The notes below the pieces were generated by a model. It saw only the letters and a program-made list of their open reading frames with translations. It was not told where the DNA came from and made no database searches. A stretch of DNA of 38,303 bases from Anaerolineales bacterium (lineage in GTDB: Bacteria; Chloroflexota; Anaerolineae; B4-G1; SLSP01). This document shows, one piece after another, positions 13,446-38,156 of this stretch; positions within the stretch are counted from its first letter, which is position 1; each line of letters starts with the position of its first letter. The position numbers and the translations under genes are program-made. Location of the stretch: contig JBKHCQ010000001.1 in NCBI GenBank assembly GCA_046541755.1, positions 1 through 38,303 of the forward strand, given 5' to 3'.

Positions 13446-13446
13446 C

Positions 13447-20926: not shown

Positions 20927-20940
20927 GATTTGAAGAAGTG

Positions 20941-21221: not shown

Positions 21222-21255
21222 CCGGCGCTCATTTTAAGGAATTTGGGGAGGAAGT

Positions 21256-21645: not shown

Positions 21646-21770
21646 ATTGGAACCCTGGGATTGGGGGGCGATGGTTGAGAGGCTATTTTGATCATTGGCT
21701 CCCCATCTCAAATCCGCTGAATCATCAGCGACGTTAAATTTTGTTAGGATGGGGTTTTTAGGAGGATTGA

Positions 21771-22178
21771 ATGGCTAAACGTTCATCTCGACGTAGTAGC
21801 AAGAAAAAAACACGTCGTATGAAGCGGAGTGTCTCGCATGGACATGTCTATGTGCACACGACGTTTAACAATACGATTGTAACCTTCGCCGACACACAAG
21901 GGAATGTATTGCGTTGGGCTAGCGCTGGCTCGGTCGGGTTCAAAGGAACGCGCAAGAGCACGCCCTTTGCCGCGCGATTAGCGGCGGAAAAGGTGGCCCA
22001 AGAGGCGATGGATAACGAGGGAATGCGGGAAGTGGATGTCTTTGTGAAAGGGGCCGGCCCAGGACGCGAAGCTTCGTTGCGTGCTATCGCGGGAAAGGGT
22101 TTGCGAGTCCTTTCCATCGTTGACACGACCCCCATTCCTCACAATGGATGCCGCCCGCCCAAAAAGCGGCGCATATAG
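21771..22178 (+). CDS. rpsK: 30S ribosomal protein S11
   Basis: ...[45 protein letters not shown]... Confidence 0.97.
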
Positions 22179-22198
22179 ATAGGCAGACAGGAGGCAAT

Positions 22199-23161: not shown

Positions 23162-23331
23162 CCAGGGCGGAGGTTGTCTTTTTGGCGCTTCGTGCTATGA
23201 TACCGCGCTGTTGAAGGCTCTGAGGTTAAAGCCGTTCCAAGAAATAAAATTCCCAAAAACGGGCGGTTTTCTGAGAAAAATATCAGGTTTGGGAGGCTTA
23301 AATCCTGGAACTTCTTATAGGGAGGTGAAAA

Positions 23332-23718
23332 ATGCGACATCGAGTCGCGGGTAAAAAACTAAATCGATCATCGAGCCATCGGACCGCTCTGCGACGTAAT
23401 TTGATCAAGGAATTGTTCCGTCACGGGCAAATTCGCACCACGCGAGCTAAGGCCGAGGCGGTTCAAGGACAATCCGAGAAGATGATTACCATCGCCAAGC
23501 GCGGGATTGCGTCTGGCGATCCAGTGAAGGAACTCAATGCGCGACGCCGGGTGGCTTCGCAACTTAATGATCCAGAGGTTGTGCAAAAGTTGTTTGATGA
23601 ACTTGCTCCTCGCTATATGGATCGTCCGGGTGGTTACACGCGGAGACTAAGGTTAGGATGGCGCAAGGGAGATGCGGCAGAATTAGTTCTGTTGGCATTG
23701 GTTAAGGAAGAACTTTAA
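23332..23718 (+). CDS. rplQ: 50S ribosomal protein L17
   Basis: MRHRVAGKKLNRSSSHRTALRRNLIKELFRHGQIRTT... Confidence 0.96.
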   Translation: MRHRVAGKKLNRSSSHRTALRRNLIKELFRHGQIRTTRAKAEAVQGQSEKMITIAKRGIASGDPVKELNARRRVASQLNDPEVVQKLFDELAPRYMDRPGGYTRRLRLGWRKGDAAELVLLALVKEEL

Positions 23719-23744
23719 CACACGACGTTAGACGGATGTAAACG

Positions 23745-24515
23745 ATGCGATACAAGGCCATCATCGCCTACGACGGAACGGCGTATGCAGGCTTTCAGCG
23801 TCAGAAAAACGCCTTCACCATTCAAGAGGAGATTGAGGACGTTTTAGGGACGTTGATGTGCGCATCCATCCGCGTGACGGCCGCCGGACGTACCGACGCG
23901 GGCGTCCACGCCGAAGGCCAAGTGATCGCCTTCGAGGGGGTGTGGCGACATTCCACCGCCGACTTACATCGCGGGATGAACGCCCTGCTCTCCGATCACA
24001 TCGCTATCGTTCATCTGTCTGAAGTCGAGGCGGATTTTCACCCCCGTTTCGACGCGGTGCGTCGTCAGTATCGGTACACAATTTACCAGGCCCCGATTCC
24101 CAACCCATTGGTTCAGCGCACCAGCTTGCACATCTCACAGGCGTTGGATCGCGAAGCGATGCAGGCCGCGGCGGGAACTTTGGTGGGGCGGCACGATTTC
24201 GCTGCGTTTGGTTCACCGCCTCAAGGACATAATGCTGTTCGGGAGGTCTATCGCGCAGCGTGGTCGTGGGCCGAAGGGACAGCTTATGGCCGCTTGGGTG
24301 ATCGAAGCGCACACACGTGGTTGTACTTTGATATCGAAGCCAACGCATTTTTATATCGAATGGTAAGAATGTTGGTCGGGACGATGTTGCGGGTTGGCTC
24401 CGGCGCGTTGACGCCGGAGGAATTCGCCGCCATCTTGGATACACAAGATCGCAATCGCGCCGGCCCGGCTATCGCAGCGTGTGGCCTTTCTTTGCAGGCT
24501 GTCCTGTATGAGTAA
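23745..24515 (+). CDS. truA: tRNA pseudouridine(38-40) synthase TruA
   Basis: MRYKAIIAYDGTAYAGFQRQ...AAGRTDAGVHAEGQV...F..NAFLYRMVRMLVGT. Confidence 0.93.
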   Translation: MRYKAIIAYDGTAYAGFQRQKNAFTIQEEIEDVLGTLMCASIRVTAAGRTDAGVHAEGQVIAFEGVWRHSTADLHRGMNALLSDHIAIVHLSEVEADFHPRFDAVRRQYRYTIYQAPIPNPLVQRTSLHISQALDREAMQAAAGTLVGRHDFAAFGSPPQGHNAVREVYRAAWSWAEGTAYGRLGDRSAHTWLYFDIEANAFLYRMVRMLVGTMLRVGSGALTPEEFAAILDTQDRNRAGPAIAACGLSLQAVLYE

Positions 24516-24560
24516 AAAACATAAGGTTATTTGGATCTTATATCAGGGAGTATAGCAAAA

Positions 24561-25007
24561 GTGAAACGAGCAATCTTACACAAGACCTACATGGCCAAGC
24601 CAGGTGAGGTCGAACGAAAATGGTATGTTGTTGATGCAAATGGTCAAACATTAGGGCGATTGGCGACGCAGGTTGCCAGCGTCCTGCGGGGCAAGGGCAA
24701 GCCGAGCTACACGCCCTACACCGATATGGGCGACTATGTCATCGTGGTCAATGCGGAGAAGGTGAATGTTACCGGCCGCAAACTTGATCAGAAATTCTAT
24801 TATCGGCACTCCGGCTATCCCGGTTCATTGAAGGCGGTTTCATTGCGTCGGATGTTGGAATTGCATCCTGAGCGCGTCATCGAGCACGCCGTTAAGGGGA
24901 TGTTGCCGCGTGGCCCATTGGGGCGTCGTATTTACAAGAAGCTCAAGGTGTATCCGGGTGGAGAGCACCCGCATCAGGCGCAGCAGCCTGAGGTTTTAGA
25001 GCTGTAA
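24561..25007 (+). CDS. rplM: 50S ribosomal protein L13 (start uncertain: GTG 24561 preferred, ATG 24591 possible)
   Basis: ...[38 protein letters not shown]... Confidence 0.92.
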
Positions 25008-25019
25008 GGAGGCGGATGA

Positions 25020-25406
25020 ATGTATTATGAGGGTTTAGGTCGCCGCAAGACATCGACGGCGCGAGTTCGTCTTTATCCAGATGGAGATGGTCAGATTCTA
25101 GTCAATGGTAAGCCCTATCGCGAGTATTTCTCTCGCGAAATGGATTGGCAGGCTGTTATAGATGCTCTCGAAGCCACCGACACATTGGGAGATTTCAATG
25201 TCACAGTCCAGGCGCGTGGCGGCGGCGTGATGGGGCAGTCCGAAGCTGTGCGGATGGGCGTGGCCCGAGCGCTGCTCAAGGTCAACCCCGAACATCGTCC
25301 TGTGCTACGGCATGCCGGCTTTTTGACCCGCGATCCTCGCATGAAGGAGCGCAAGAAGCCAGGTCTCAAGCGCGCACGCAAGGCGCCGCAATACACCAAG
25401 CGTTAA
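25020..25406 (+). CDS. rpsI: 30S ribosomal protein S9
   Basis: ...GLGRRKTSTARVRLYP...GGGVMGQSEAVRMGVARAL...RDPRMKERKKPGLKRARKAPQYTKR. Confidence 0.97.
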   Translation: MYYEGLGRRKTSTARVRLYPDGDGQILVNGKPYREYFSREMDWQAVIDALEATDTLGDFNVTVQARGGGVMGQSEAVRMGVARALLKVNPEHRPVLRHAGFLTRDPRMKERKKPGLKRARKAPQYTKR

Positions 25407-25493: not shown

Positions 25494-25524
25494 TGTTGTG
25501 TCGCGTGTGAGGAGGGAGTGCTTT

Positions 25525-27000
25525 ATGGGACATTTGACCATCATTGGATTAGGGCCGGGATCGCCCAAAGATCTGACGCGCGAGGCCTGGGAAGTTCTCT
25601 CGCAGCTTGATGAGGTATGGTTGCGCACCACCCATCATCCGGTGGTGCGCAGTTTGCCCGCCGGATTGGACGTGCGCTCCTTCGATCATCTCTATGAAGC
25701 GGCGGAGACCTTCGAGGATGTCTATGTTCAGATCACGGCGCAGATCTTGTCGCTGGCGGCGCGAGCGCAGGGGGTGACCTATGCCGTCCCCGGCCATCCG
25801 CTGATGGGCGAATCGACTGTCACCCGCATTTTATCTGCGACGATGGATCGGGACCTTCCTATTCGGATCGTGGCGGGCCTGAGCTTTTTGGAGCCATCAT
25901 TGACCGCGTTGGCCTATGATGCACTAGATGGCCTGCAAATCATCGATGCGTTGGAGATGCTGGCTCTCCATCATCCGCCGCTTAACTCCGATTTCCCGGC
26001 GTTGATTGGGCAGGTGTATAGTCGTGCCATCGCCTCCGAATTGAAGTTGGTCCTGATGAATCAGTATCCCGATACCCACGAGACCGTGCTCATCGACGCG
26101 GCGGGGACCCCCGCCCAAACGGTGCGCCGCCTCCCGCTCTATGAAATCGACCGTCACCCCGTTTCCCCGCTGACCTCGCTGTACATCGCGCCGTATCTGC
26201 CCCCGGCTTACGCCGATTGCTCGGCGCCGGTGTATGGTAGCTTTCAGGGCTTCCAGAATACCATCGCGCAGCTCCGCGCGCCTGATGGCTGCCCATGGGA
26301 TCGCAAGCAGACTCATGCCTCGCTTCGCCCTAATCTCTTGGAAGAGACTTACGAGGTGTTGGCCGCGATTGATGAAGATGACACGGATGCGCTCCGCGAG
26401 GAGTTGGGCGATTTGTTGTTGCAGGTGGTGTTGCAGACCCAAATCGCCATCGAAAGTGGAGAGTTTGATATGGCGGAGGTCATCGCCGGCATCGACGCGA
26501 AGCTCAAGCATCGCCACCCGCACGTCTGGGGTCAGGTCGAGGTGGACGGCGCAGAAACCGTGACCAAGAATTGGGAGGCGCTCAAACGCGAGGAGCGCGT
26601 TGCCAATGGGAAGGCAAAGCGCTCAGCACTGGATAGCATTCCCACGGCGCTGCCGGCTTTGGCGCAGGCAATGGCCTACATTGGACGCGCGGCGCGTGTG
26701 GGCGGCGGCTTGAAATCCATCACCGAGGTAGAAACCTACGTCGAGAATACGCTGGCTGCATGGAAGGCGGCGGAATCTCAGCGAGAGCAACATCGCGCGA
26801 TAGGAGAATTGCTCCTGGCCCTCGTGGCCTGGGCGCAATGGCGCGAGGTGGACCCCGAAAGCGCCCTCCGTGAAGCGAACCTCCGTTTTGTCCGCCACTT
26901 CCGGCAGCTTGAATCTCTGGCCAGAGAACGCGGCGTCTCGATAGCGGATCTCGCGCCGGAAAAGCGCGCGCAGCTTTGGGCGCGGACAATGGAATTGTAG
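25525..27000 (+). CDS. YabN-like fusion: tetrapyrrole (corrin/porphyrin)-type SAM methylase domain + MazG nucleoside-triphosphate pyrophosphohydrolase domain
   Basis: N-terminus LTIIGLGPGSPKDLT (TP-methylase GxGPG motif). C-terminal half has CPWDRKQTHASLRPNLLEETYEVLAAIDEDD...LREELGDLLLQV (MazG EExxE/D signature). GAGGAGGGAG SD precedes ATG 25525. Confidence 0.85.
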   Translation: MGHLTIIGLGPGSPKDLTREAWEVLSQLDEVWLRTTHHPVVRSLPAGLDVRSFDHLYEAAETFEDVYVQITAQILSLAARAQGVTYAVPGHPLMGESTVTRILSATMDRDLPIRIVAGLSFLEPSLTALAYDALDGLQIIDALEMLALHHPPLNSDFPALIGQVYSRAIASELKLVLMNQYPDTHETVLIDAAGTPAQTVRRLPLYEIDRHPVSPLTSLYIAPYLPPAYADCSAPVYGSFQGFQNTIAQLRAPDGCPWDRKQTHASLRPNLLEETYEVLAAIDEDDTDALREELGDLLLQVVLQTQIAIESGEFDMAEVIAGIDAKLKHRHPHVWGQVEVDGAETVTKNWEALKREERVANGKAKRSALDSIPTALPALAQAMAYIGRAARVGGGLKSITEVETYVENTLAAWKAAESQREQHRAIGELLLALVAWAQWREVDPESALREANLRFVRHFRQLESLARERGVSIADLAPEKRAQLWARTMEL

Positions 27001-27044
27001 AAACATCACGGGACACGGATCGGCGTCCTCTCTATTTTTACAAA

Positions 27045-27079
27045 AAACGCCTCCTGACAAAAACTGTCAGGAGGCGTTT
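27045..27079. terminator. Bidirectional intrinsic terminator between the convergent mazG-fusion and trxA genes
   Basis: 15-bp perfect stem AAACGCCTCCTGACA / TGTCAGGAGGCGTTT with a 5-nt loop. An A-run lies on the left (a T-run for the minus-strand transcript) and TTTC on the right. Confidence 0.8.
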
Positions 27080-27101
27080 CTCGTTCAAAGTCTGGAGTTT
27101 C

Positions 27102-27422
27102 TTACAGATGAGGTTTCAGGGCCTTCTCCAGTTGCTCCTCCGTCTTATTCCCCACCATACGATGGACTTCCTCCCCGTCCTTGAAGAGGATCATCGTGGG
27201 AATGTTCATCACGCTGTACTCAGTCGCCAGCTTGGACTCTTCGACATTGGCCTTGACGACCTTGAGCTTTCCCGCCATCTTTGGAGCAAATTTTTCCAGC
27301 GTGGGGCCGAGCGCGCGACAGGGTGGACACCACTCTGCCCAGAAATCGACCAGCACCGGCAATGAAGCGTTAACAACCTCTTCCTCAAAGTTTTCTTTTG
27401 TGATTGCCGTCAATTCTCCCAT
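27102..27422 (-). CDS. trxA: Thioredoxin with a WCPPC active site
   Basis: 106 aa: ...LPVLVDFWAEWCPPCRALGPTLEKFA...NIPTMILFKDGE... Confidence 0.93.
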   Translation of the reverse strand: MGELTAITKENFEEEVVNASLPVLVDFWAEWCPPCRALGPTLEKFAPKMAGKLKVVKANVEESKLATEYSVMNIPTMILFKDGEEVHRMVGNKTEEQLEKALKPHL

Positions 27423-27500
27423 AGATTTATCTCCCCTTTTGGATAGTCTTAATGGTTGCTACAACAGATTTCGTCAAGTATGGCATAGCCGAGTTGATTG

Positions 27501-28235
27501 TCAAGTCAGATGTTTTGTGGCAGTGATCAAAAAGAATGGCAGATGTACCACCTGCGACCACGACCCTGTAAGCGTCTTGGCTTGGCGCTCGATGTGATCG
27601 AGTTGGGCGCGCTCTTCTGGGGTGAGGGGCAGCCCGCGCAATAGATCAAAGCGCTGGGTGGCCGGCGGGCGCAGCGAGTCGAAGAGATCGACCCGCACCT
27701 CGAAGCCCTGCTCGGCGCACAGGCCGGGGAACTTGCGCCCCACCTGTGGATCGGCGCCCGCGCGCTGTAGCCCCGCGATCCACAACTCGCGGGTGGCGAT
27801 CTCTGACGGATGTTCCATCATCCCGCCGTAGTCCGGCGCCAGTGCGATCCACACGCCGTCGGCCATCAGAACGCGCCAGACCTCCCGCACAGCAGCCGCG
27901 ACGTCGTCGATCCAGAGCGTGGTCAGTTGGGAGAAGACGAGATCGAAGTGGGCCGCTCGAAAGGGCAACCGCCGGGCGTCGCCGCCGACTAAAAGCGTGC
28001 CCTCGGTCTGGATTTCGCCCAGAGCCGCGACCGCGCGATCTAAGGCGATGACCGCGCCCTCGGCGCGGCGCACCAACTCGGCGGTGACGGCGCCGCGCCC
28101 CGCGCCCAGATCCAGAACGCGCCGCCGGCGTGCGATGTGGATGCGCCGCAGAAGGCGCGCGCGGGCCGGCGCCAACCACTCGGCCTGATGCGCCAACAGC
28201 GCCGCCGAGGGCGCGGCGGAAGTCGAGGACATCAT
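27501..28235 (-). CDS. Class I SAM-dependent methyltransferase (start trimmed to ATG 28235, 7 nt after the upstream stop)
   Basis: VLDLGAGRGAVTAEL (motif I GxGxG), ...VIALD..., ...FDLVFSQLTTLWIDD..., ...VLMADGVWIA. The track start at 28313 overlaps the upstream gene. Confidence 0.85.
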   Translation of the reverse strand: MMSSTSAAPSAALLAHQAEWLAPARARLLRRIHIARRRRVLDLGAGRGAVTAELVRRAEGAVIALDRAVAALGEIQTEGTLLVGGDARRLPFRAAHFDLVFSQLTTLWIDDVAAAVREVWRVLMADGVWIALAPDYGGMMEHPSEIATRELWIAGLQRAGADPQVGRKFPGLCAEQGFEVRVDLFDSLRPPATQRFDLLRGLPLTPEERAQLDHIERQAKTLTGSWSQVVHLPFFLITATKHLT

Positions 28236-28242
28236 CGTGTCG

Positions 28243-30135
28243 CTATCTGCCGCCGCCCGCGCAGGCGCACGCGCAAGCACACCCGGCGCACGCGCACGCG
28301 CATCCACTCCCACCGCCGCTGTCGCCGCTCTTCGAGGATTCCATCAGCGCGGTGAAGACATCGCCCGTGACCTTATCCACGCCGCTGAGATCGACGACGC
28401 CGCCCTTGACTTGGGGCGCTTGCAAGGAGCCAGGCAGGATCGCGGCGGCCATGCCGCCCATCGTGCTCTCGGCCCAGCCGGCAAATGAGGCGCCCACGTC
28501 GCCAAAGGTCGTGCGCCCGCCGCCGCTGCTGCTCTTGCCGCCGCCTATCGAAGGGCCGCCGCTGCTTGTCGCGGGGCGCATGGCGTGGCGCGCCCAGATC
28601 GGCCAATAGTGATGGCCGTGGTGGGTCATGACGGTGGGGTACTCCTCGTTCATCATCACCCACGGCAGGTACTTATCCAGATATTTCTCCCGCTGCTCGA
28701 TCTCGCCGATGGACGACGCCTGTTTCATCGCCCGGTCCATCACCCGGCGATAATAATCCTGCGTGTCGGAGAGATCAAAGCCCTTCATCTTGGCGGCCGC
28801 GATCTTGATCAGCCACTCCATCGGCTTACTGAAATCGATCTCCTGCACCGGCTTGTCCGAGTGCTGCTCGATGAGATCTAAGAAGCGATCCTCATAGCTG
28901 TGGACGACGGTCCCCTTGCGTTGCGCGACGTTTTGGCGATAGGCGCGGCGTTCCTTGATGGTGTCCAAGTCCGATTGGTCCATTACCTTGAAATCCTCGG
29001 CGACCTTGACCTGGAGCGGATCGGCCTGCTCTTGCTCTAAAAGGCCCTTCTCCAAGAGGCCGAAGATCACCAGGGTGAGCACTTTGTTGAGCGGCATCTC
29101 CAGAATGATCGCCGCCTCGGGCGCTGTCAGCCCGCGCTTGATGCCGCCGCCCTCGACCTCGGCAATCGCCGGCAGGTAAGTGCGCTTCTTGCGCTTGCCC
29201 TTGTGTTTCCGCAGGGTGGTTTCATTGAAGAGGGTGAGCGCGATTAGAATTGGGATGCTGAAGAGTACCATCAGCGGGCCGATGAAAAAGAGGAAAACCG
29301 CGCCGCCCAGCAGCAGGACGTAGACGGTGCAGCCGGTGCCGCCCGTGAATCGGAAGAAGAGGAAGCTAAGGAGGGCGATGTTGAACGCGCCCAGCATCAG
29401 ATAGACCATCGGGTTGTCGGTGAGCCATTTGTTAGTCAGTTGGAAGATGTTCATCGTGATGACGTTCTGCATCACGCGCTTGGGGAAGGAAACGCCGACC
29501 AGATGCTCCCGCGTGATTTTGGTCTCCGGCCATTCCCAGAGCGCGACGACGCGGTCGTTAAAGAGGGCCTTGTTGGTAAATTCCTCTTTCTGATAGACGA
29601 CCTCATCCGGCTCGACGCCTTCGGGGATGTGGATGGCCAGTTGGAGATGGGTCGTGCCCCGCACCAAGTCGCTATCGAACCACGTGGGCGTGATCTGGAG
29701 CGAGGCTTTCTCTTTGTCCGTGGTATCTTGATAGACCATATCGGGCATCGTGAACTCGAAGTGAAGTGTGCCCTGCTCGCCACGCCCGATCTCCTGGCCG
29801 TCGAGATGTACCTCCACGCCGGTATCGATGTATTCGGATGTGCGAATATCCGTCAGCGGTTCCCCATCGATGGAGGCGCTCATATTGCCGATGTCGTAAT
29901 TATCGTGTGGCGTCCCGATGTCCACCACGTCGATGGGGTCGCCGTGATTTTCGAAGGTGATGTCATAGACGATGCGGACGGAGGCGTCGGGCTGGACGTA
30001 GACCTGCATCTGCATTTGGGGGACGGCGAAGCTGTAGCTTTGCGCCAGTATGGGATTCCCAACCAGCGTGAGCAGTAGCACAATCACCGGGATGAGCGCG
30101 AGATGTCGTAAGCTTCTCTTCATGTTCATTTTCAT
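28243..30135 (-). CDS. DUF2207-like polytopic membrane protein with a Gly/Ser-rich region and a C-terminal alternating Cys-Ala tail (GCACACAGCACACACAGGGR)
   Basis: 630 aa. It has an N-terminal signal/anchor (LALIPVIVLLLTLVGNPILA) and a beta-rich ectodomain with a DUF2207-like opening (YSFAVPQMQMQVYVQPDASVRIVYDITFEN...). Three hydrophobic helices span about aa 245-310 and are followed by KHKGKRKKR. A soluble domain of about 300 aa follows, then GGPSIGGGKSSSGGG...SGDSGGGSG and the Cys-Ala tail. ATGA overlap with the upstream gene. Confidence 0.75.
   Translation of the reverse strand: MKMNMKRSLRHLALIPVIVLLLTLVGNPILAQSYSFAVPQMQMQVYVQPDASVRIVYDITFENHGDPIDVVDIGTPHDNYDIGNMSASIDGEPLTDIRTSEYIDTGVEVHLDGQEIGRGEQGTLHFEFTMPDMVYQDTTDKEKASLQITPTWFDSDLVRGTTHLQLAIHIPEGVEPDEVVYQKEEFTNKALFNDRVVALWEWPETKITREHLVGVSFPKRVMQNVITMNIFQLTNKWLTDNPMVYLMLGAFNIALLSFLFFRFTGGTGCTVYVLLLGGAVFLFFIGPLMVLFSIPILIALTLFNETTLRKHKGKRKKRTYLPAIAEVEGGGIKRGLTAPEAAIILEMPLNKVLTLVIFGLLEKGLLEQEQADPLQVKVAEDFKVMDQSDLDTIKERRAYRQNVAQRKGTVVHSYEDRFLDLIEQHSDKPVQEIDFSKPMEWLIKIAAAKMKGFDLSDTQDYYRRVMDRAMKQASSIGEIEQREKYLDKYLPWVMMNEEYPTVMTHHGHHYWPIWARHAMRPATSSGGPSIGGGKSSSGGGRTTFGDVGASFAGWAESTMGGMAAAILPGSLQAPQVKGGVVDLSGVDKVTGDVFTALMESSKSGDSGGGSGCACACAGCACACACAGGGR
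28258..28303 (-). repeat. Coding microrepeat (TGC-GCN)n that specifies 7 Cys alternating with Ala/Gly; includes an 18-nt perfectly alternating purine/pyrimidine tract (28286-28303)
   Basis: Codon-by-codon read: Cys codons at 28261, 28267, 28273, 28279, 28288, 28294 and 28300 (plus-strand 'gca'/'aca'). Confidence 0.85.
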
Positions 30136-31499
30136 TCGATACCTCCTGTCTGCGCGTCAGATTCATCTTCTGTATGCTCCGTATCCATCACCGGAATTTG
30201 AAGATCGGCCGGATCCGGATACTCGAACTGTTCATTGTACGTCAGGGGCGGCTCGACCTTCTCGCGATAGATGCGGAAGGCGTCGTGCTGCCAGATAGTC
30301 TCCCAATCGTCTTTTAGAATGTTGCCGACGCTCTGAATCGGGCCGCGCGAGGGGATGACCTCGCCGTTGGGTTCGACGCGCACCGCCGTATCCTCGGTAC
30401 AGCGCGGCCCCTGCCGGACCTGTGCAGCCAGCGGAATCTCGGGGCGGCGCGGCATCGGAGGCGCCCAGAGGAAGCGCATCTGCGTCTGCGTCGCGGCCTC
30501 CTCCACCTGCGCCTCGAGCTGCGGCAGCGCCGCCACCGCGAGCGCATCATCTTTCTCCTCTGACTTCTCTGACCACTTCTCTGACGTCGGCTCCTCAGTA
30601 AGAACATAGGCCACGAAGGCGATGTTGTCCACGCCCAATTCAGCCATCTCCTCGACGGTCGCCTCCAACTCCTGCGCGGTGCGTTGCGTGAGGGGCATCT
30701 CGGCGATGGCACAGATTTCGTTGGCCTCCAGCCAGTCGAAGAGGGCGGTGGCCGCTGCGTGATCTCCCGCGCCACAGAGCGCATCATGCAGCGCGGGATC
30801 GGTGGCCGCGTAGAGCACGGTCACGTGATCCACACCCGCCATCATCACATCCTGGAGCAGTTCCTCGTCCCAGAGATCGGTCGCGCGACCTCGCACGCCG
30901 GCGATCATTCCCAGATCCTCCGCCAATTCGATGGCGCGGATCAAATCGCTGCGCTCGAATTCCTCCGGCGCCAGGACGGTGACGTTGGGGATGCCCACCT
31001 CCCAGAGTCGACGTAGCAGTGGCGTCATCCGGGTCGGATCGGCGAGCGGCACGCTGGCCTGGAGCGGCGCGATCAACTGCGCTTCGTAGGGCGAGAAGGC
31101 GGCGTCATTGAGCGTGAAGAGCGGGTAGGCGTCGCGAGGGTTGGTGATCTGCCGGATGAGGCCGGTGACTTGCGCAATGTCCGTGCGCATCTGTTCCTCA
31201 GCGCCGCCCTCGAAATGGGCTTGCAGGCGATGGAGGATCTCGTTTTCATCTTGGCCGTCCAACAGCCCCTTGGCGATCACGGCGCCGCTGGGGGAGAGTT
31301 GGGCGGCCGCCGCCGCGTTGGCGATCAACAGGCCGCTGCCGTCGCGCTCGACCCGCAGATGGAAGCGCGTGTACATCCCATCGGCCTCCTCCAGGGCGTG
31401 ATAGAGGCCCGGCTCGACGGGCGGCCCGCTCTCCGGCTCGTCGCGCTCGATGCTGAAGATGCGCTCCCAAAAATCCTTGATTAGTTCTTGAATGTTCAT
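30132..31499 (-). CDS. Pseudo-radical-SAM paralog: PqqD/RRE-like N-domain + rSAM-like barrel without CxxxCxxC + degenerate SPASM-like C-terminus (start trimmed to ATG 31499)
   Basis: 455 aa starting MNIQELIKDFW, behind AGGAGGGAG. The N-domain (PGLYHALEEADGMYTRFHLRVERDGSGLLIANAAAAAQLSPSGAVIAKGLLDG) aligns by eye with the N-domain of the upstream rSAM enzyme. The protein has only 3 Cys, none in a cluster motif. The tail VRVEPNGEVIPSRGPIQSVGNILKDDWETIW mirrors the SPASM segment IEPNGDVLPCQSYYVTAGNLLTDPWDEIW but lacks its Cys. Confidence 0.75.
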   Translation of the reverse strand: MNIQELIKDFWERIFSIERDEPESGPPVEPGLYHALEEADGMYTRFHLRVERDGSGLLIANAAAAAQLSPSGAVIAKGLLDGQDENEILHRLQAHFEGGAEEQMRTDIAQVTGLIRQITNPRDAYPLFTLNDAAFSPYEAQLIAPLQASVPLADPTRMTPLLRRLWEVGIPNVTVLAPEEFERSDLIRAIELAEDLGMIAGVRGRATDLWDEELLQDVMMAGVDHVTVLYAATDPALHDALCGAGDHAAATALFDWLEANEICAIAEMPLTQRTAQELEATVEEMAELGVDNIAFVAYVLTEEPTSEKWSEKSEEKDDALAVAALPQLEAQVEEAATQTQMRFLWAPPMPRRPEIPLAAQVRQGPRCTEDTAVRVEPNGEVIPSRGPIQSVGNILKDDWETIWQHDAFRIYREKVEPPLTYNEQFEYPDPADLQIPVMDTEHTEDESDAQTGGIE

Positions 31500-31518
31500 G
31501 TAAAACTCCCTCCTGAAT

Positions 31519-32988
31519 TTATGATTGGACGGCCTGCGTTGCTTGCGGAACGCGCGCGCCGGCTCGACCGCAACCCCGTTCGGGCGCGCCGATCTGTTGC
31601 GCCTCGCGCTCCAGCCGGCAGCCGCCGCCGCACATCGGTAGATCGGGGCAATCCCAGCATTTGCGGGGCAATCCCGCCGCCTCCGGGTTCTCCTCGCGAT
31701 CCCGGAAGCTGCGGAAAAGCGCGCTGTTCCAAATCTCATCCCACGGATCGGTGAGGAGGTTGCCCGCTGTGACGTAATAGGATTGGCAAGGGAGGACATC
31801 GCCATTTGGCTCGATGCACATCGAATACTCGGCGGCGTTGCAGCGCTTGGGATCCAGCCCCAGCGCGACCGGCGAGAAGCGACAGTACTCCGTCACCGTG
31901 TACCAGAGGAAGCGCATTCCCAGCGCCTCGGCGCGCTTGCGTACCTGGATCAGCAGCGGCGCCATCTCCTCGGCGGGGATCGCGTCCGGCGTCGCGAGGC
32001 CGCCGCCGGCGTAGATCATCCCGTTCATCGCGAAGGTCCGCACCCCCAGATCGTACAGAAAATCGACGATCTCCACAGCGTGCGCTTGATTCTGGCGGGT
32101 CAGCGTGGTGTTGGTGATGGTGTGGATGCCGCTCGCAAGCGCGTTCTCGATTCCCTGGACGGTCTCCGCGAAGGCCTGCGATCCCGGCAGGCCGACCATC
32201 GCGTTGTGCTCCGCCGCCCGGCACGACTCCAGCGTGATCTGCACGTGATTGAGGCCCGCCTCGGCCAGCGAGGACGCCAGCGCGGGGCGCGCCAGCCGTC
32301 GCCCGTTGGTGTTCATCCCCACGATGTGCCCCTGCGCGTCGGCGTGGCGGATGATCTCCTCCAGGTCGGGATGCAGCGTCGGCTCGCCGCCGGTGAGAAT
32401 CACGTGCGGGACGCCGATCTCGTTCAGCTTATCGAAGACGCGGCGCCAATCCGCCAGGGAGAGCGTGGACATCGCGAAGCGTTCGCCGGGGTTGTAGCAA
32501 TGAGGGCAGGCATTGTTGCAGGCGTAGGTGAGCGCCACATCAACCTTGTAGGGGGCGTTCGCGGGCGCGCTGAAGAGCGGGCGAAAGTCCACCCGGTCGG
32601 CAATTGCGCAGATGCGACATCCGCCCTCCGGCGCGCGCAACGTCGCCACCATCTCGTAGATCTTGGTCACGTCGCGCGCCAACTGCGCATCGGCCACATC
32701 CACATCGGTGAAGCGCCGGGCCATCCGGGCGCGCGCCTCCGCCGCCGGGATTTCATCCAGGGCCAGCTTGGCGATCTCCGTTGCTGTGGCGTTGAGGTGG
32801 ATGACGTCGGTGACGTCGATGAAGAGCGCGCTGTGACCCTCCGGCTGGACGCGCAGGTGGATGCGCCGCTCCCCGTCCTCCGGGGCAATCCGGTAGGTGT
32901 AGAGGCCTGGCGCCGGCGGGGACGGCGCGGGCTTGAGCCACGATTGCATCGCCGCCCGCAGGCGCGCCCACCAAGGTTGCGTGGTCAT
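31519..32988 (-). CDS. Radical SAM / SPASM-domain enzyme with an N-terminal PqqD-like RiPP-recognition element
   Basis: 489 aa. CNNACPHCYN (CxxxCxxC) is encoded at 32497-32520. The GGEPTL SAM-binding motif is present. SPASM signature: C-x-AEYSMCIEPNGDVLPC...GN...C-WDC-x5-CGGGC. N-terminal about 110 aa: GLYTYRIAPEDGERRIHLRVQPEGHSALFIDVTDVIHLNATATEIAKLALDE. Confidence 0.9.
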   Translation of the reverse strand: MTTQPWWARLRAAMQSWLKPAPSPPAPGLYTYRIAPEDGERRIHLRVQPEGHSALFIDVTDVIHLNATATEIAKLALDEIPAAEARARMARRFTDVDVADAQLARDVTKIYEMVATLRAPEGGCRICAIADRVDFRPLFSAPANAPYKVDVALTYACNNACPHCYNPGERFAMSTLSLADWRRVFDKLNEIGVPHVILTGGEPTLHPDLEEIIRHADAQGHIVGMNTNGRRLARPALASSLAEAGLNHVQITLESCRAAEHNAMVGLPGSQAFAETVQGIENALASGIHTITNTTLTRQNQAHAVEIVDFLYDLGVRTFAMNGMIYAGGGLATPDAIPAEEMAPLLIQVRKRAEALGMRFLWYTVTEYCRFSPVALGLDPKRCNAAEYSMCIEPNGDVLPCQSYYVTAGNLLTDPWDEIWNSALFRSFRDREENPEAAGLPRKCWDCPDLPMCGGGCRLEREAQQIGAPERGCGRAGARVPQATQAVQS

Positions 32989-33015
32989 TCTATCCTGACG
33001 AAGTCGGTTCTGATA

Positions 33016-33357
33016 CTACCACTTAGGCGCTTCTTCGATCTGGTACGTGGAGCCGCAGTAGGGGCAATGGACAAAAATCGCGCCGGCCTTGACCTCCAGC
33101 GCGTCCCGATCCAACGTGCCGCCGCAACTGCGGCATTTCATCTGCTCTAAATTGACATCACCGGAGAGATCGATCTTCTGGATCATCGTCGTCTCCGTCT
33201 TCTGCGGGCGCACCTGCGTGAGGTAGATCAACATGCCGGCGCTGGCTATCAAGATTACGCCCACGATGATCCATCCTATGCCTCCCGTTCCACCAACGAC
33301 GAACATCACGCCAAAGAAACCCAGCACCGCCGCGATCAGATAGGTCACAAGTTTCAT
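33016..33357 (-). CDS. Small membrane-anchored zinc-ribbon protein (two N-terminal TM helices + CxxC...CxxC)
   Basis: 113 aa: MKLVTYLIAAVLGFFGVMFVVGG...IIVGVILIASAGMLIYL...CRSCGGTLD...VHCPYCGSTY. Confidence 0.7.
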   Translation of the reverse strand: MKLVTYLIAAVLGFFGVMFVVGGTGGIGWIIVGVILIASAGMLIYLTQVRPQKTETTMIQKIDLSGDVNLEQMKCRSCGGTLDRDALEVKAGAIFVHCPYCGSTYQIEEAPKW

Positions 33358-33691
33358 ATTCGCACTCCTGGTTGTTTGAGAGTTATATTATGTACTACGT
33401 CATAAGGCATAGGAGGTTGCTCAGGGGAGAATAATGCGCTAACTGTAAGACATACTACAATAGCTTCGATAAAAAATCAAACCTGATGGGCGGTGGGAGC
33501 CTCGTGGTTGCTCTTAGAAGTGCCCGCGCTTTGGTGACTTTCGTAAGGTGTTGTACAATGAGGGTAGTATAGGTGCTCAATCTTATGTCGATTTTATCCG
33601 AATCCCCAGATCGGGGCAACGTGGTTCGCGTGTCCAAATACCTAAAATATCCGATAGACGTTCGAGGAAATCTATATAAACGGGAGATAAG

Positions 33692-34006
33692 ATGGCACTT
33701 AAGATTAAAGCGTATGAGGATAAACTTGCCGAGTTGTGTGTTGCCTATGGCGTCCAGCGATTAGAGGTGTTTGGCTCGGCAACCAGAGATGATTTTGATC
33801 CTCAGCAAAGCGACATGGATTTTCTGGTCGTCTTTGAAGATGCTCGCCCCCATGGCGCATTTGATCGTTATTTTGGCTTGAAAGAGGCCTTGGAGCGGCT
33901 TTTTGAACGTTCTGTTGACTTGGTTGAAGAAAAAGCGATCAAGAACCCGTATTTTCGACAGGCGATCTTGCGAGATAGGATGGTAATCTATGGAACTGGC
34001 GGCTAA
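33692..34006 (+). CDS. mntA: MNT-type nucleotidyltransferase antitoxin (type VII TA)
   Basis: 104 aa with FGSATRDDFDPQQSDMDFLV (GSx10-11 D-x-D NTase motif). It overlaps the HepT gene by 17 nt. Confidence 0.85.
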   Translation: MALKIKAYEDKLAELCVAYGVQRLEVFGSATRDDFDPQQSDMDFLVVFEDARPHGAFDRYFGLKEALERLFERSVDLVEEKAIKNPYFRQAILRDRMVIYGTGG

Positions 34007-34343
34007 AAAGCTGGTCTATGATGTGGATCAGGCTGTCAATTTGATCACTGAATTTACAGCGGACAAAGAGTTTGAGGATTACGCAACGGATGTTATGTTG
34101 CGTTCCGCCGTTGAACGGCAATTTGAGATTGTTGGCGAAGCCCTCAACCGTTTGAAGCAGGTTGATATGCAATTGCTCTCGAGGATCAGTGATTACCATC
34201 GCATCATTGGCTTTCGAAACGTGCTTGCTCATGGGTATGATGTCGTCTCGGATGAGATTGTATGGGACATTATCCAGAACCGGCTGCCGCTGTTGCGTCA
34301 AGAGATCGATGAGATCAAGTGGGAAGCGGGTATAGCGGATTGA
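33990..34343 (+). CDS. hepT: HepT (DUF86/HEPN) RNase toxin
   Basis: 117 aa with FRNVLAHGYD (Rx4HxY HEPN motif). Confidence 0.85.
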   Translation: MELAAKKLVYDVDQAVNLITEFTADKEFEDYATDVMLRSAVERQFEIVGEALNRLKQVDMQLLSRISDYHRIIGFRNVLAHGYDVVSDEIVWDIIQNRLPLLRQEIDEIKWEAGIAD

Positions 34344-34488: not shown

Positions 34489-36048
34489 ATGGAGACGAAG
34501 AAATGGTCACGGGCTTGGGCCGATATACTCACCGAGGAACTTGACCGGCCGGTGCGGCTGCGTGTGCGCGGGGCGAGCATGGCCCCCACGCTTCGACCTG
34601 GCGATGTGGTGATGGTCGAGCCGATCACCGACGCGGCGCTCCGCCTGGGCGATTGGGTGCTCGTGCGCGGCGAGCGCGAGAATTACCTCCATCGCTACGT
34701 GGGGCGGCGCGCGGATCGCGTGCTCACCAAGGGCGACGCTCATCGGCGGCTCGATCCCCCCTGGTCGCCCGCTGCGATCCGAGGCCGCGTAACCGCCGCC
34801 TATCGCGACGACGCCTGCTACTATCGCCGGACGCCCCGCCGGCAACGTCGCGAGCGCGTGCGCGCCGTCGGTCATCGCGTCGGCGGCGAGGTGTGGAGCG
34901 CGCTCGCCCGCCTCAAAAGCTGGCTTCTGCTCCTCTTGCTGTTGGCTGTCACTATCACCGGCGTCTATGCCGCCGTCACCGTGACCGAGTTCACCGCCCA
35001 ATGGGACGGCGACCAAGTCCATCTCCATTGGGAGACGGCCAGTGAGACTGGAAATCTGGGTTTTATGCTCTGGCGTCGTGAGGAAGGTGAAGGCGACTTC
35101 GAGACGATTTTTGTCGAAATTCCCAGTGAAGAAGGCCTCACGGATTTTGTGCCGGGGATCGGGGACATCGTCGGCGCCAGCTATGATGCCTACGACGTGA
35201 ACGTGACGCCCGGCATCGCCTACGAGTACCAGCTTCAGGATGCGCCGGACGACGGCAGCGAGGGGGAGATGTTCGGGCCGGTGACGCCGATGGCTAACGA
35301 TACGCCGACGCCAACCTCCACGCCTACGCCGCAGCCGGCGGCCACGGCCACCCCCACGATCCGCCCAACGCGGACGCCAACGGCCAACCCTTCGCCCTCT
35401 CCCACGCCGACCCCGCGCGTGCAGTTTTGGGCCGATCAGGAGAACCTCGCCGCCGGGACGTGCACGACGCTGCATTGGACAACCGAGAACATTCAAGCCG
35501 CCCACTTGAATGGCGAGGGCGTCGACGGCAGCAGCTCGAAGACCGTGTGCCCGTGTGAGGATGTGACCTACACGCTCCGGGTGATCTACAAGGATGACAC
35601 CGAGGAGGATTTTGACATCGCCTTGAGCGTCACCGGCACGTGCGACGACGCCTCGGACGCCACGGCCACAGCGACCCCCTTCCGTGTCACGACGGCGACC
35701 CCCGGCGCGACGCCGACCGCCTCCCCGACCCCCACAACCTCCGCCGCCGATGCCCCGACCGCCACGCCCACGTCATCGCCGACCGCCGCGTCAGCCTCCG
35801 GCGCCGAGACCGATTCGCCTCTCCCGACGCCCGCCGCGCTGACGCCCACGCTCGCCGCGCCCGATCCCGCCGATTCGACGGTGACGCCATCTACCACTGC
35901 TAGCCCGACCCGTCCCGCCGTCGCCGGCGAACAGCCGGCCTTCGCCTCCCAGGAGCGTCCCTCTAACTTGCTCCTGCTAGGCGGCGGCATCGGATTTGGC
36001 CTGCTGCTCATCGGCGTGGGCGTCTGGCTGTGGGGCCGTCATCGGTGA
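34489..36048 (+). CDS. Fusion protein: N-terminal S24/S26-type (signal-peptidase/LexA-like) serine peptidase domain, TM helix, two beta-rich ectodomains separated by Pro/Thr/Ala-rich linkers, C-terminal TM anchor with a basic tail
   Basis: 519 aa. RVRGASMAPTLRPGDVVMV (GxSMxPTL box) and TKGDAHRRLDP. TM WLLLLLLLAVTITGVYAAV. Linkers TPTPTSTPTPQPAATATPTIRPTRTPTANPSPSPTPTP and a long A/T/P tract. C-terminus PSNLLLLGGGIGFGLLLIGVGVWLWGRHR. Confidence 0.7.
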   Translation: METKKWSRAWADILTEELDRPVRLRVRGASMAPTLRPGDVVMVEPITDAALRLGDWVLVRGERENYLHRYVGRRADRVLTKGDAHRRLDPPWSPAAIRGRVTAAYRDDACYYRRTPRRQRRERVRAVGHRVGGEVWSALARLKSWLLLLLLLAVTITGVYAAVTVTEFTAQWDGDQVHLHWETASETGNLGFMLWRREEGEGDFETIFVEIPSEEGLTDFVPGIGDIVGASYDAYDVNVTPGIAYEYQLQDAPDDGSEGEMFGPVTPMANDTPTPTSTPTPQPAATATPTIRPTRTPTANPSPSPTPTPRVQFWADQENLAAGTCTTLHWTTENIQAAHLNGEGVDGSSSKTVCPCEDVTYTLRVIYKDDTEEDFDIALSVTGTCDDASDATATATPFRVTTATPGATPTASPTPTTSAADAPTATPTSSPTAASASGAETDSPLPTPAALTPTLAAPDPADSTVTPSTTASPTRPAVAGEQPAFASQERPSNLLLLGGGIGFGLLLIGVGVWLWGRHR

Positions 36049-38156
36049 GACGCTCACGTCGCACGCTTCTGCTGATGGGCGGCCTTTTGCTGATCGGCTG
36101 CGTCTTTGTCGGATGTAGCGCGCGTCCCGCGTCCCCACCTGCGATCCCGGCCACGTCGCCCTCGCCTCCTTCTCAATGGACGCTCGCCGTCCGCACCGAT
36201 GGCCCGCGCTGGTTGGGCGCTGCTTGGTGGCGCGCCCAGGGCCTCGATCCCGCGACGCTGAGCCACGAAAACGTGCGCCTCCAACAGGCCGGACGCGACA
36301 TCCCGCTCCGGTGGATCGATGCGCCGGACGGCCCCGGTCTTCTCTTCTACGGCCACACAACGGTTGATCTGGAGGATCTGGGCTTGGCAGGCGCTTATAC
36401 CCTGACCTTGGGCGCGCCGGGGACGCCGATGACCTCCGCGCCGTTGCCCTCGTTGCAATCGCCCTTCCAAGTGACGACGACTGCTGTGCTGCGCCGCGCC
36501 CCCGATCTCGTCTATCGCGCCGCCGCCCCGATGACGCGCCCGTGGTTCTGGCGCTCGCTCTTCGCGCCCGACGCGCTGACCCTCACGCTGCCCCTGACCG
36601 ACGCCGTCCCCGGCCCCGTCGCCTTGGGGCTGCGCGTCTGGGGCCAGAGCCGCGCGCCCCAAGCGCCGGATCATCACCTGCGCGTCCTCTGGGACGGCGT
36701 GGAGGTGAGCGATCACTTCTGGGATGGCTCTGAAATGGAGGCGTGGACGGTCGCAGGCGCGGATCTGACGACGGACGGCAGCGAATCGCACACCTTAGTG
36801 CTGGATGCGCCTGGCGACACCGGCGCGCCCGTCGATGTGACGTGGATCGACGCGATTACGGTCACCTGGACGCGCGATTTGCGCTTCGCCGATCATACTG
36901 GATGGGCGCAGTGGCGCGCAACCGCCGCCTCGGCGGCCTGTTGGGATGCGTTGCCCGACGACGCGCATCTCCTGATGGTGCCATCGCAATCGGAGGGCGC
37001 GGTCTGGCACGCGGAAGTAGGTGACATCGCCACCGCAGAGGCCGGGCGGCGCTGTCTTCCTCAGGAACCGCTTGGGCAGGGCTGGATTGGGCGGCCAGAG
37101 GCGGCCCCGCCTCCGGATCTCATCCGCCCGCGCGAGACGCTCAGCGTGCCCGCGCTGTTGGCGACCTCCTACTTGATCATCGCGCCCCGCGAGTTCCACG
37201 CGCCGCTGGCCCCGTTGCAGGCCGCGCGCGAGGCCGAGGGTCTGACGGTGACCCTCGTCACGCCCGCGCAGGTGTACGATACATTTAGCGAGGGCTTGCC
37301 GACCGCTCAAGGCATTCAAAAGGCCGTCGGGGTGCTGCACGACCGAGGCCAATTGCGCTACCTCCTGCTGGTGGGCGACGCTGTGGCCGATCCGCCGGCG
37401 CTCTGGCAAGCGGATCAACCGCAAGTCCCCACCCGTTGGGTGCGGACGGCGGTGATGGGCCGCACGCCCTCCGATCACGCGCTGGTTCAGGGCCTAGACG
37501 GCGAACGCGAGGGCGAGCCGTTGGTCGCCGTGGGCCGCTTCCCGGCGACAACAGCGACCGAGGTCGCGGCGATGGTGGAGAAAACGTTAGCGTGGGCGCC
37601 CCCGCCGCGTCCCTTGCTGCTTGTGGATAACGAACCCTCCTTCGCCGCGCTGGCCGACGATCTGGCGGACGTAGTGCCGGCCGATGCGCGCTTCTCCGCG
37701 TCGGAATCCGATGCGCGCACCGAGTTGTTACGCTGGCTGCGCGCAGAATCGGATAGATCGGTTATAATAACCTATTCGGGGCATGGGAGCCTGCCGATGC
37801 TGGGCGATGAGAAGTTGTTGACTCGCGAGGATGCTGGCGCGTGGCGCGCGCCGACCGTCGTCGTCGCCTGGACGTGCCTCTGCGCTAACATCACCCATCC
37901 GACGCACGCGGGGCTGGGCGAGGCGTGGCTCCGCGCGCCGGAGGGCGTGGTGGCGCTCGTCGGGCCCACGGGCGAGACGACGACCGCCGAGCAGCGCCCG
38001 ATGGCCTTAGCGTTCCGCCACGCCTGGATCGACGGCGCGCGCTTGGGCGATGCGTTGCTCCAGGGCTGGCGCGCCACCCCCTCGCGAGACGCCGAGACGA
38101 GCTTTATTTTATTGGGCGATCCCGCCCTACCGATGCAGGGACATCAAAACGAATGA
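36030..38156 (+). CDS. Peptidase C25 (gingipain/PorU-like) family cysteine peptidase, predicted lipoprotein (start GTG 36030 or GTG 36045)
   Basis: 708 aa. N-terminus RRSRRTLLLMGGLLLIGCVFVGC (lipobox-like). C-terminal half YLIIAPREF...LQAAREAEGLTVTLV...VYDTFSEG...YLLLVGDA...SDHALV...VGRFPATTATEVAAMVEKTL...IITYSGHGS...VVVAWTCLCANI follows the C25 layout, including the His (GHG) and Cys positions. Confidence 0.65.
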   Translation: MGPSSVRRSRRTLLLMGGLLLIGCVFVGCSARPASPPAIPATSPSPPSQWTLAVRTDGPRWLGAAWWRAQGLDPATLSHENVRLQQAGRDIPLRWIDAPDGPGLLFYGHTTVDLEDLGLAGAYTLTLGAPGTPMTSAPLPSLQSPFQVTTTAVLRRAPDLVYRAAAPMTRPWFWRSLFAPDALTLTLPLTDAVPGPVALGLRVWGQSRAPQAPDHHLRVLWDGVEVSDHFWDGSEMEAWTVAGADLTTDGSESHTLVLDAPGDTGAPVDVTWIDAITVTWTRDLRFADHTGWAQWRATAASAACWDALPDDAHLLMVPSQSEGAVWHAEVGDIATAEAGRRCLPQEPLGQGWIGRPEAAPPPDLIRPRETLSVPALLATSYLIIAPREFHAPLAPLQAAREAEGLTVTLVTPAQVYDTFSEGLPTAQGIQKAVGVLHDRGQLRYLLLVGDAVADPPALWQADQPQVPTRWVRTAVMGRTPSDHALVQGLDGEREGEPLVAVGRFPATTATEVAAMVEKTLAWAPPPRPLLLVDNEPSFAALADDLADVVPADARFSASESDARTELLRWLRAESDRSVIITYSGHGSLPMLGDEKLLTREDAGAWRAPTVVVAWTCLCANITHPTHAGLGEAWLRAPEGVVALVGPTGETTTAEQRPMALAFRHAWIDGARLGDALLQGWRATPSRDAETSFILLGDPALPMQGHQNE

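Follow-up and report, generated by a model that had tools for sequence, protein, structure and literature searches.

To our knowledge, radical S-adenosylmethionine (rSAM) enzymes that join a RiPP recognition element (RRE; RiPP, peptide synthesized ribosomally and modified after translation) to a SPASM domain have been described almost exclusively in the production of diffusible cofactors or of small peptides that are secreted. The maturases CteB, SkfB, AlbA and PapB, as well as SuiB, have an N-terminal RRE, an rSAM core and a SPASM domain with two auxiliary clusters, and the targets of the sactipeptide and ranthipeptide maturases are Cys-containing cores behind a recognition segment. Here we describe a gene cluster that appears to follow the same plan with a different kind of target. 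It lies on a 38.3-kb contig from a metagenome-assembled genome (MAG) of an Anaerolineales bacterium (GCA_046541755.1, JBKHCQ010000001.1, positions 1 to 38,303; we refer to this whole stretch as the window). Its genes, all on the minus strand, encode a Zn-ribbon membrane protein, an rSAM-SPASM enzyme with a predicted RRE, a pseudo-rSAM paralog, a membrane protein of 630 residues that ends in a Cys-Ala tail, and a class I SAM methyltransferase. We propose, with a probability of roughly 60%, that these genes make up a conserved, unnamed maturation system in which the rSAM enzyme modifies the Cys-Ala tail.

Compared with the sactipeptide and ranthipeptide systems, the "precursor" here would be the C-terminus of a ~600-aa membrane protein, protease and exporter genes are absent, the Zn-ribbon membrane protein and the pseudo-rSAM are extra partners, and the model scores are far under the family cutoffs. 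The features of a classical RiPP locus, a short stand-alone precursor gene and a protease or exporter, were not found in the loci that we examined. PqqE with PqqD and MftC with MftB rely on RRE-dependent recognition and are among the best NCBIfam matches of the window enzyme, and the site of MftC action is the very C-terminal end of its peptide. However, the context here lacks pqq and mft genes, and in place of Glu/Tyr or Val-Tyr the putative target is a repeat of Cys and Ala that forms part of a large protein.

Some SPASM enzymes do act on whole proteins: anaerobic sulfatase maturase (anSME) converts a sulfatase Cys or Ser to formylglycine, and QhpD makes thioether links in QhpC. These are precedents for SPASM modification of Cys in a protein that keeps the modification, and anSME is among the Foldseek matches of the window enzyme, but the tail has no CxAxR or CxPxR motif, there are no amine dehydrogenase or sulfatase genes, and the proposed substrate is the tail of a membrane protein. 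The ACGX repeat, CXXX repeat, SCIFF and FibroRumin targets, defined in silico as TIGRFAMs/NCBIfam families, are also short and have periodic Cys, and each is paired with an rSAM/SPASM enzyme. In contrast to the tail, those are stand-alone small peptides, their sequences differ from the CA unit and the GGGR end, and the scores are below the cutoffs (the FibroRumin-target model TIGR04135 matches the tail weakly, in 2 of 26 members at E=0.06). Borosins are a precedent for a C-terminal core fused to a large protein.

Because of the precedents in anSME, QhpD and borosins, we would not rate this system as categorically new. By its sequence features it appears to work like an RRE-dependent rSAM/SPASM RiPP maturase, yet it falls outside every named family to which we compared it. 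No NCBIfam model, Pfam model or published account that we found covers the system; the literature searched gave no account of the tail motif, none that links DUF2207 with radical SAM, and nothing relevant under broader keywords.

The Cys-Ala tail and the protein that carries it

The membrane protein (28243-30135, minus strand; NCBI record "hypothetical protein ACLFTI_00200") ends in GCACACAGCACACACAGGGR at its extreme C-terminus, where the initial annotation had pointed out a Cys-rich tail. Homolog alignments, a codon table and a metagenome pattern scan define its invariant part, the proposed core and substrate, as CACACAGCACACACAGGGR-COOH (28246-28302, minus strand). From a search of 5.8 billion proteins we collected 120 homologs with 53-100% identity; behind a Gly/Ser linker that varies, all of them terminate in CACAGCACACACAGGGR, and the terminal 17 residues are invariant in every one. 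An alignment of 26 sequences, made up of a subset of these homologs and the window protein, has a mean column identity of 62% and no variation in its last 17 columns. The family is large: in a profile search of 1.84 billion cluster representatives, at least 932 clusters, formed at 50% identity, matched at E<=1e-3, and 332 still matched at E<=1e-30. The canonical tail is present in 106 of the best 150 cluster representatives, and the others are mostly fragments, with a few that have one or two substitutions. Two forms of the tail occur, and nearly every full-length member ends in one of them: type 1, (CA)2-3-G-(CA)4-GGGR, and type 2, (CA)4-G-(CA)3-GGGR, the latter on proteins that are only ~32% identical to the window protein. 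Judged from these alignments, conservation of the tail is far beyond chance.

In 86 tails from 82 loci and the window, every synonymous codon for Cys, Ala, Gly and Arg occurs, as does each of the three stop codons, so that selection acts on the peptide, at the amino-acid level, and not on the DNA or RNA. This rules out the tail as a DNA or RNA element, and there is no Rfam match in 26900-33800. Generic low complexity is ruled out as well, the tail residues being invariant right beside variable Gly/Ser linkers.

A degenerate DNA pattern for nothing but (CA)3GGGR-stop, run against 241 million metagenome records, returned at least 120 stretches, and we analysed 80 of these loci (L085-L164) with 85 tails. 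Wherever an upstream match could be detected, in 73 of the tails, it was to the same membrane protein family, and the remaining 12 of the 85 lie at contig edges, ten with no more than 40 residues upstream and two with 103 and 150. None of these 80 loci showed a tail peptide standing alone. In the first 84 loci, the 88 tails sit on long open reading frames (ORFs; median 632 aa) with one frameshifted exception. In the pattern scan, the tail was found only on this membrane protein family.

In the AlphaFold model of the membrane protein (predicted local distance difference test, pLDDT, 76), a signal or transmembrane (TM) helix at residues 3-25 is followed by a confident beta-sandwich ectodomain (36-218), three TM helices (242-318), a winged helix (338-378) with the invariant motif EGGGIKRGLxAPE, a helical domain (393-502), short helices at 544-571 and 589-600, and a disordered tail. 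The protein has no Pfam or NCBIfam match at all, a profile search found no solved homolog at E<=1, and Foldseek returned only the generic beta-sandwich of M1 aminopeptidases and oligosaccharyltransferase subunits.

The initial annotation had described this protein as DUF2207/TIGR04222-like. Proteins of that type have a signal peptide, a beta-sandwich ectodomain, TM helices, a cytoplasmic winged helix and a Gly-rich C-terminal tail, and the overall layout is indeed similar, but an invariant Cys-Ala tail and linkage to an rSAM gene are not among their features. We had to drop the label, given that neither DUF2207 (PF09972/PF20990) nor TIGR04222 matched any of the 36 members searched (26 members at E<=10 and 10 distant members at E<=0.01). 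It survives in the UniRef name "DUF2207 domain-containing protein" of one distant member, P0382 from an Eisenbacteria MAG, in which Pfam finds nothing at E<=0.01. By these profile searches, the relation to DUF2207, if any, would be remote.

The winged-helix and helical domains (338-502) are predicted to be cytoplasmic, and the Gly/Ser linkers and the Cys-Ala tail come after them. Three cues bear on the topology: the signal is of Sec type (ILA-QS), the TM helices that come after the ectodomain are odd in number (three in the window protein, one in tandem paralogs and in type 2), and Lys and Arg residues cluster behind the last TM helix. Because of these cues, we infer that the C-terminal half and the tail are cytoplasmic.

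Upstream of the Gly/Ser linker, residues 546-600 (28336-28500, minus strand) form a leader-like segment with the patterns DV..SFAGW.E.TMG...P and GG.VDLSGVDKVTGD.F and with invariant columns from D546 to A596. In an alignment of C-terminal regions, the segment that precedes the linker reads DVxxSFAGWxExT...P and GGxVDLSGVDKVTGD in type 1, and LPGxxFA ... FTxxVTxxTNPxP in type 2. Since each clade has its own conserved segment at this place, the C-terminal ~90 residues are arranged like a RiPP precursor, with recognition segment, linker and core. In general terms, the tail is carried by a membrane protein of ~520-640 aa, and the C-terminus of this protein forms a RiPP-like module of leader-like segment, Gly/Ser linker and invariant core (CA)nG(CA)mGGGR-COOH.

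The radical SAM enzyme and its linkage to the tail gene

The rSAM gene (489 aa; 31519-32988, minus strand) was characterized with Pfam, NCBIfam, AlphaFold2 and Foldseek. Its product has the motifs CNNACPHCYN, GGEPTL and CGGGC on which the initial annotation had based its assignment, and both expected Pfam domains score well above their gathering thresholds (PF04055 Radical_SAM, E=8e-27, 94.9 bits against 29.5; PF13186 SPASM, E=1e-12, 48.2 bits against 21.5), so this assignment holds. The cluster motif C157-X3-C161-X2-C164 (aa 157-164, 32497-32520) has its Cys residues invariant in 31/31 homologs. The Cys residues of the SPASM region span aa 369-473 and include C383-X12-G396-X4-C401, C444-X2-C447-X5-C453-X3-C457 and C473; among the same 31 homologs C369, C383, C391, C401, C444, C447, C453 and C457 are invariant and C473 is nearly so (94%). 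We also observed an additional CxxC (C124 and C127, in GGCRIC; 32608-32619) between the RRE-like domain and the rSAM core, which is invariant in 31/31 homologs.

The RRE is predicted at about aa 28-118 (32635-32907). At the N-terminal PqqD-like domain of the initial annotation, the AlphaFold model (28 sequences; pLDDT 78, predicted template modeling score 0.78) has strands at 28-65 and then three helices at 67-118, and the PqqD profile (PF05402) matches marginally, at 21.0 bits against a cutoff of 23.4. In Foldseek, the top ranks for the model are held by the RRE-bearing enzymes SkfB, SuiB and CteB, which align over 426-486 columns, nearly the whole length; the alignments to SuiB and CteB cover 449-486 columns, and those to core-only enzymes such as PqqE and anSME about 350. 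The fold predicted for the N-terminal domain therefore agrees with an RRE, and we regard it as a predicted peptide-recognition domain. Taken over the whole cluster, profile searches confirmed the Radical_SAM, SPASM and methyltransferase domains that had been expected, whereas PqqD stayed marginal and DUF2207/TIGR04222 was absent.

One could suppose that the enzyme is an ordinary ortholog of AhbD, NirJ, PqqE, MftC or anSME, that the tail is low-complexity sequence and that the gene order is coincidental. The best NCBIfam scores do go to AhbD (120.9 bits), PqqE (116.4) and NirJ2 (110), and the closest solved sequence is PqqE (E=3e-19). These scores, however, are 3-5-fold under the curated cutoffs of 381-500 (500 for AhbD, 381 for PqqE), and the others compare no better, with MftC at 92.6 against 265, StsB at 91 against 625, AlbA at 68 against 850, and rSAM_ACGX at 63 bits. 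All 65 NCBIfam matches are below their curated cutoffs, and none of the characterised equivalogs AhbD, PqqE, NirJ, MftC, MoaA, AlbA, StsB, WgkB, ACGX and GeoRSP reaches its own. There are also no heme, PQQ or mycofactocin genes nearby, the synteny with the tail protein holds across ~10 phyla, and the tail is under purifying selection at the amino-acid level. We give this explanation almost no weight, since the data already contradict it, and the enzyme is a true radical-SAM/SPASM enzyme and, by its profile scores, not an ortholog of any characterised family. The clear orthology that could have undone the initial annotation is thus not what we found.

When one genome of each GTDB species was scanned, at least 426 species had a relative. 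By MAG label these belong to about ten phyla: Chloroflexota, Planctomycetota, Armatimonadota, Zipacnadia, Myxococcota together with other "delta-proteobacterial" MAGs, Nitrospirota, Hydrogenedentota, Elusimicrobiota, Acidobacteriota/Aminicenantes and Cloacimonadota. We searched 82 of the species-genome loci with the window proteins by tblastn, and 42 of them had enough flanking sequence for the gene content to be counted. Three layouts were observed: type 1, with Zn-ribbon, rSAM, pseudo-rSAM, membrane protein and methyltransferase genes in this order; an intermediate layout, with Zn-ribbon, rSAM, membrane protein and methyltransferase; and type 2, with Zn-ribbon, membrane protein and rSAM. The type-2 rSAMs of the species genomes are true enzymes, with CQNDCPHC and 7-10 C-terminal Cys.

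A true rSAM gene is present in 33 of the 42 full-flank loci, or 35 if two split genes are included, and an rSAM or pseudo-rSAM in 40. Pseudo-rSAM and Zn-ribbon genes are found in 34 each. Among metagenome tails of type 2 with at least 1.7 kb downstream, a true rSAM gene comes next in 42/43; for type-1 tails with at least 5.5 kb upstream, the figure is 4/6. The neighbourhood check that the initial annotation had suggested therefore turned out in its favour, and the linkage between rSAM and tail outlasts a change of gene order between clades that are ~32% identical. The absence of a short precursor ORF, which had been noted for the window, extends to the relatives: none is conserved in 83 loci, no short ORF bears the tail, and the intergenic gaps between system genes in the window are at most 27 nt. 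Clustering of ORFs of at least 70 aa from 83 loci gave no further conserved partner, and no protease or transporter gene is conserved in the loci by ORF clustering.

The first gene of the cluster encodes the Zn-ribbon membrane protein (113 aa; 33016-33357, minus strand), an ORF with two N-terminal TM helices, CxxC...CxxC and a C-terminal YQxEExPKW. In an alignment of 55 sequences, the TM helices and CxxC...CxxC are common to all, and the C-terminal motif (33016-33045 in the window) is invariant in these homologs from several phyla. This end raises the question of whether the Zn-ribbon protein is the real substrate of the rSAM enzyme, for example for a Lys-Trp crosslink as in streptide, with a separate role for the tail. 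The Lys-Trp crosslinker SuiB is among the top structural matches, and an rSAM gene accompanies the Zn-ribbon gene in 32 of 34 full-flank loci (two split genes counted). In type 2, however, the tail gene sits between the Zn-ribbon and rSAM genes, two loci (L060 and L062) have rSAM and tail protein with no detectable Zn-ribbon gene, and the Zn-ribbon protein never occurs without the tail family in the loci examined. Two TM helices with a Zn-ribbon also look more like an anchor or adaptor, which is how we read the protein, as probably one or the other. We find it improbable, all told, that this protein rather than the tail is what the enzyme modifies.

Some relatives have additional genes. In close Anaerolineae relatives (L001, 5641-9956 and 12645-14890; L083, 13500-17872) the cluster is enlarged by genes for a LiaF-like TM protein, for a protein that resembles Met_synt_B12-activation and contains CxxCPxxxCPGR, and for a second tail-bearing paralog in tandem, in which the DLSGVDKVTGD segment is missing; in L001, a HemN-like rSAM and a small rSAM come after the methyltransferase. 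In L084 (9152-17454), a type-2 cluster with Zn-ribbon and tail protein adjoins an rSAM-like gene that lacks CX3CX2C and the SPASM Cys, and beside this cluster are a true type-1-like rSAM gene and then a 298-aa copy of the cytoplasmic domain that has neither tail nor ectodomain.

How the tail may be modified

We envision that the rSAM enzyme docks on the leader-like segment through its RRE, possibly joined in type 1 by the RRE of the catalytically dead paralog. With the 5'-deoxyadenosyl radical and two auxiliary clusters, the enzyme would then modify the Cys/Ala core, which meanwhile stays tethered to the membrane protein, and the Zn-ribbon protein probably holds the enzyme at the membrane. The methyltransferase, where present, might add further methylation. 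Because no protease or exporter is present, the product would stay on the protein. The likeliest product would be a two-strand hairpin stapled by several S-C thioether links, with epimerisation or a metal-binding site as alternatives; thioether stapling is the commonest SPASM chemistry on Cys-rich cores. The order of block lengths is reversed from one clade to the other (3+4 against 4+3), as would suit a two-strand hairpin whose strands can trade places. Our confidence in any specific chemistry is much lower than in the tail as substrate. Somewhat short of even odds, we would place a broader suggestion, that the tail becomes a protein-tethered prosthetic structure, kept at the cytoplasmic end of the membrane protein and essential for what this protein does (a thioether-stapled or D/L-alternating hairpin, or a metal-sulfur site) and so a new protein-derived cofactor, or "tethered RiPP", of ~10 phyla and hundreds of species.

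Several observations weigh against modification of the tail by the rSAM enzyme. In about one-fifth of type-1 loci there are pseudo-rSAM, membrane protein and methyltransferase genes but no true rSAM within 5-10 kb, and the tails in such loci are unchanged. HMM support for the recognition domain is weak, with PqqD detected at E<=0.01 in 4/28 rSAM members, and the rSAM core scores highest against cofactor enzymes (AhbD, PqqE, NirJ) and not against sactisynthases. The invariant end of the Zn-ribbon protein, encoded next to the rSAM gene, offers another possible substrate, and an unmodified tail rich in CxC could simply bind metal. Gene linkage does not identify a substrate, so that the pairing of enzyme and tail is our inference from genomic context.

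The metal-binding possibility deserves more attention. The tail would then be an unmodified metal-thiolate or Fe-S binding site, or a redox module, of a membrane sensor or transporter, and the rSAM enzyme would act elsewhere, for instance on a small molecule or cofactor required by the same machinery. The 6-8 Cys of the tail have CxC spacing as in metallothionein, the alternation of Cys and Ala would make all thiols point to the same side of a strand, and both the invariance of the tail in loci with no true rSAM nearby and the resemblance of the rSAM core to cofactor enzymes fit well with such a role. In metallothioneins, however, the non-Cys positions vary, in contrast to the tail, whose Ala, Gly and terminal Arg do not change either. 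A peptide substrate is indicated by the RRE-like domain and by the SkfB/SuiB/CteB-like architecture of the whole protein, no small-molecule pathway genes are conserved nearby, and the rSAM gene directly follows 42 of 43 type-2 tails. We therefore consider it unlikely, if less so than the proposals that the Zn-ribbon protein is the substrate or that the enzyme is a known ortholog, that the tail stays unmodified.

Modification of the tail by the rSAM enzyme is the explanation that we prefer. The initial annotation had arrived at this idea from the window, and it is strengthened by the invariance of the tail across ~10 phyla, by constraint at the amino-acid level and by linkage to a true rSAM in two clades; the undescribed rSAM maturation system that had been proposed stands in part, having lost its thioredoxin and DUF2207 components. 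If the proposal is right, a ~600-aa membrane protein follows the logic of recognition segment, linker and core within its own C-terminus, and RiPP-type chemistry would extend to the permanent modification of a membrane protein. It would also define a widespread but functionally unassigned protein family, which counts at least 932 clusters and occurs in at least 426 species, most of them anaerobes that have not been cultured. A core of 17-19 residues that is identical everywhere makes a very clean, testable substrate, and for reconstitution the type-2 clusters, with just three genes, offer a minimal set.

Accessory genes and the surrounding region

The five system genes are tightly packed, with gaps of 27 nt and 19 nt, a 4-nt ATGA overlap and a gap of 7 nt, and 78 nt separate the methyltransferase from the thioredoxin gene downstream, all of which reproduces the spacing given in the initial annotation.

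The pseudo-rSAM (455 aa; 30132-31499, minus strand) starts with the ATG at 31499 behind GGAGGGAG, a Shine-Dalgarno sequence, and was identified by alignment with the rSAM family. The window protein keeps an RRE-like N-terminal domain and the barrel, and has lost CX3CX2C, GGE and all SPASM Cys. In a joint alignment with the rSAM family, the CX3CX2C segment is deleted in 31/31 pseudo members, GGE is absent and the first four SPASM Cys are missing. Loss of every cluster-binding Cys, as first described, is correct for the window lineage (3/31) but not beyond it: elsewhere CxxCx5Cx3C is kept, in 28/31, and one further Cys is kept in 29/31. Pfam finds SPASM in 25 and PqqD in 13 of 28 pseudo-rSAMs (E<=0.01), and the N-terminal domain has the shared motif PGLY...HLRV..DG.G.L. 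The pseudo-SAM/SPASM family TIGR04347 and the GG-Bacteroidales pseudo-rSAM are likewise dead paralogs encoded beside a live rSAM; the window pseudo-rSAM differs in keeping an RRE-like domain, and TIGR04347 scores 16.5 bits on it, below the cutoff of 525.

The methyltransferase (244 aa; 27501-28235, minus strand) is confirmed as class I (Methyltransf_11, E=2e-15). It is frequent but not universal (28/42 full-flank loci), so that it is better seen as an accessory. None of the type-2 clusters sampled from species genomes (L063-L082) has a pseudo-rSAM. The pseudo-rSAM and the methyltransferase are accessory, and the Zn-ribbon protein, the rSAM and the tail protein are the conserved core. An anti-phage defence role was considered and rejected: PADLOC gave only generic similarity to the rSAM core (pVip) and to methyltransferase, and no match for the Zn-ribbon, pseudo-rSAM and membrane proteins.

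The thioredoxin gene (27102-27422, minus strand) encodes a bona fide TrxA (TIGR01068, 110.8 bits against a cutoff of 96.8). A promoter-like site at 27477-27504 (minus strand; TTGACA, 16 nt, TG-CATACT; sigma-70-like, 10/12 matches) starts at the methyltransferase stop, and tblastn found a thioredoxin homolog in the flanks of 0/82 related loci. Because of these two results, we no longer count the CPPC thioredoxin as a member of the system, in which it had been included; it is an unrelated neighbour that is probably transcribed on its own. The terminator expected after it can be read from the sequence as an intrinsic-terminator-like hairpin at 27042-27076 (minus strand), with a perfect 12-bp stem, a 5-nt loop and T6, but it was not listed by a terminator scan. 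A gene for a fusion of a tetrapyrrole-methylase-like domain with MazG (25498-27000, plus strand) converges with trx on the same hairpin.

On the other side of the cluster, directly upstream of the promoter region of the operon, an MNT nucleotidyltransferase (NTP_transf_2) and a HepT-like RNase are encoded at 33692-34343 (plus strand) by genes that overlap by 17 nt, and these resemble a type VII toxin-antitoxin pair. Farther on, at 34489-38156 (plus strand), is a gene for a 519-aa protein with an S24-like peptidase N-terminal domain, a TM segment and a long Pro/Thr/Ala-rich region, and it overlaps the start of a gene for a 708-aa C25 (gingipain-like) peptidase. Finally, a run of short ORFs at 5695-25406 (plus strand) is laid out like a ribosomal-protein super-operon, as judged from the ORF layout, and ends just ahead of the system in L13-like and S9-like ORFs, the only two of the run that were read.

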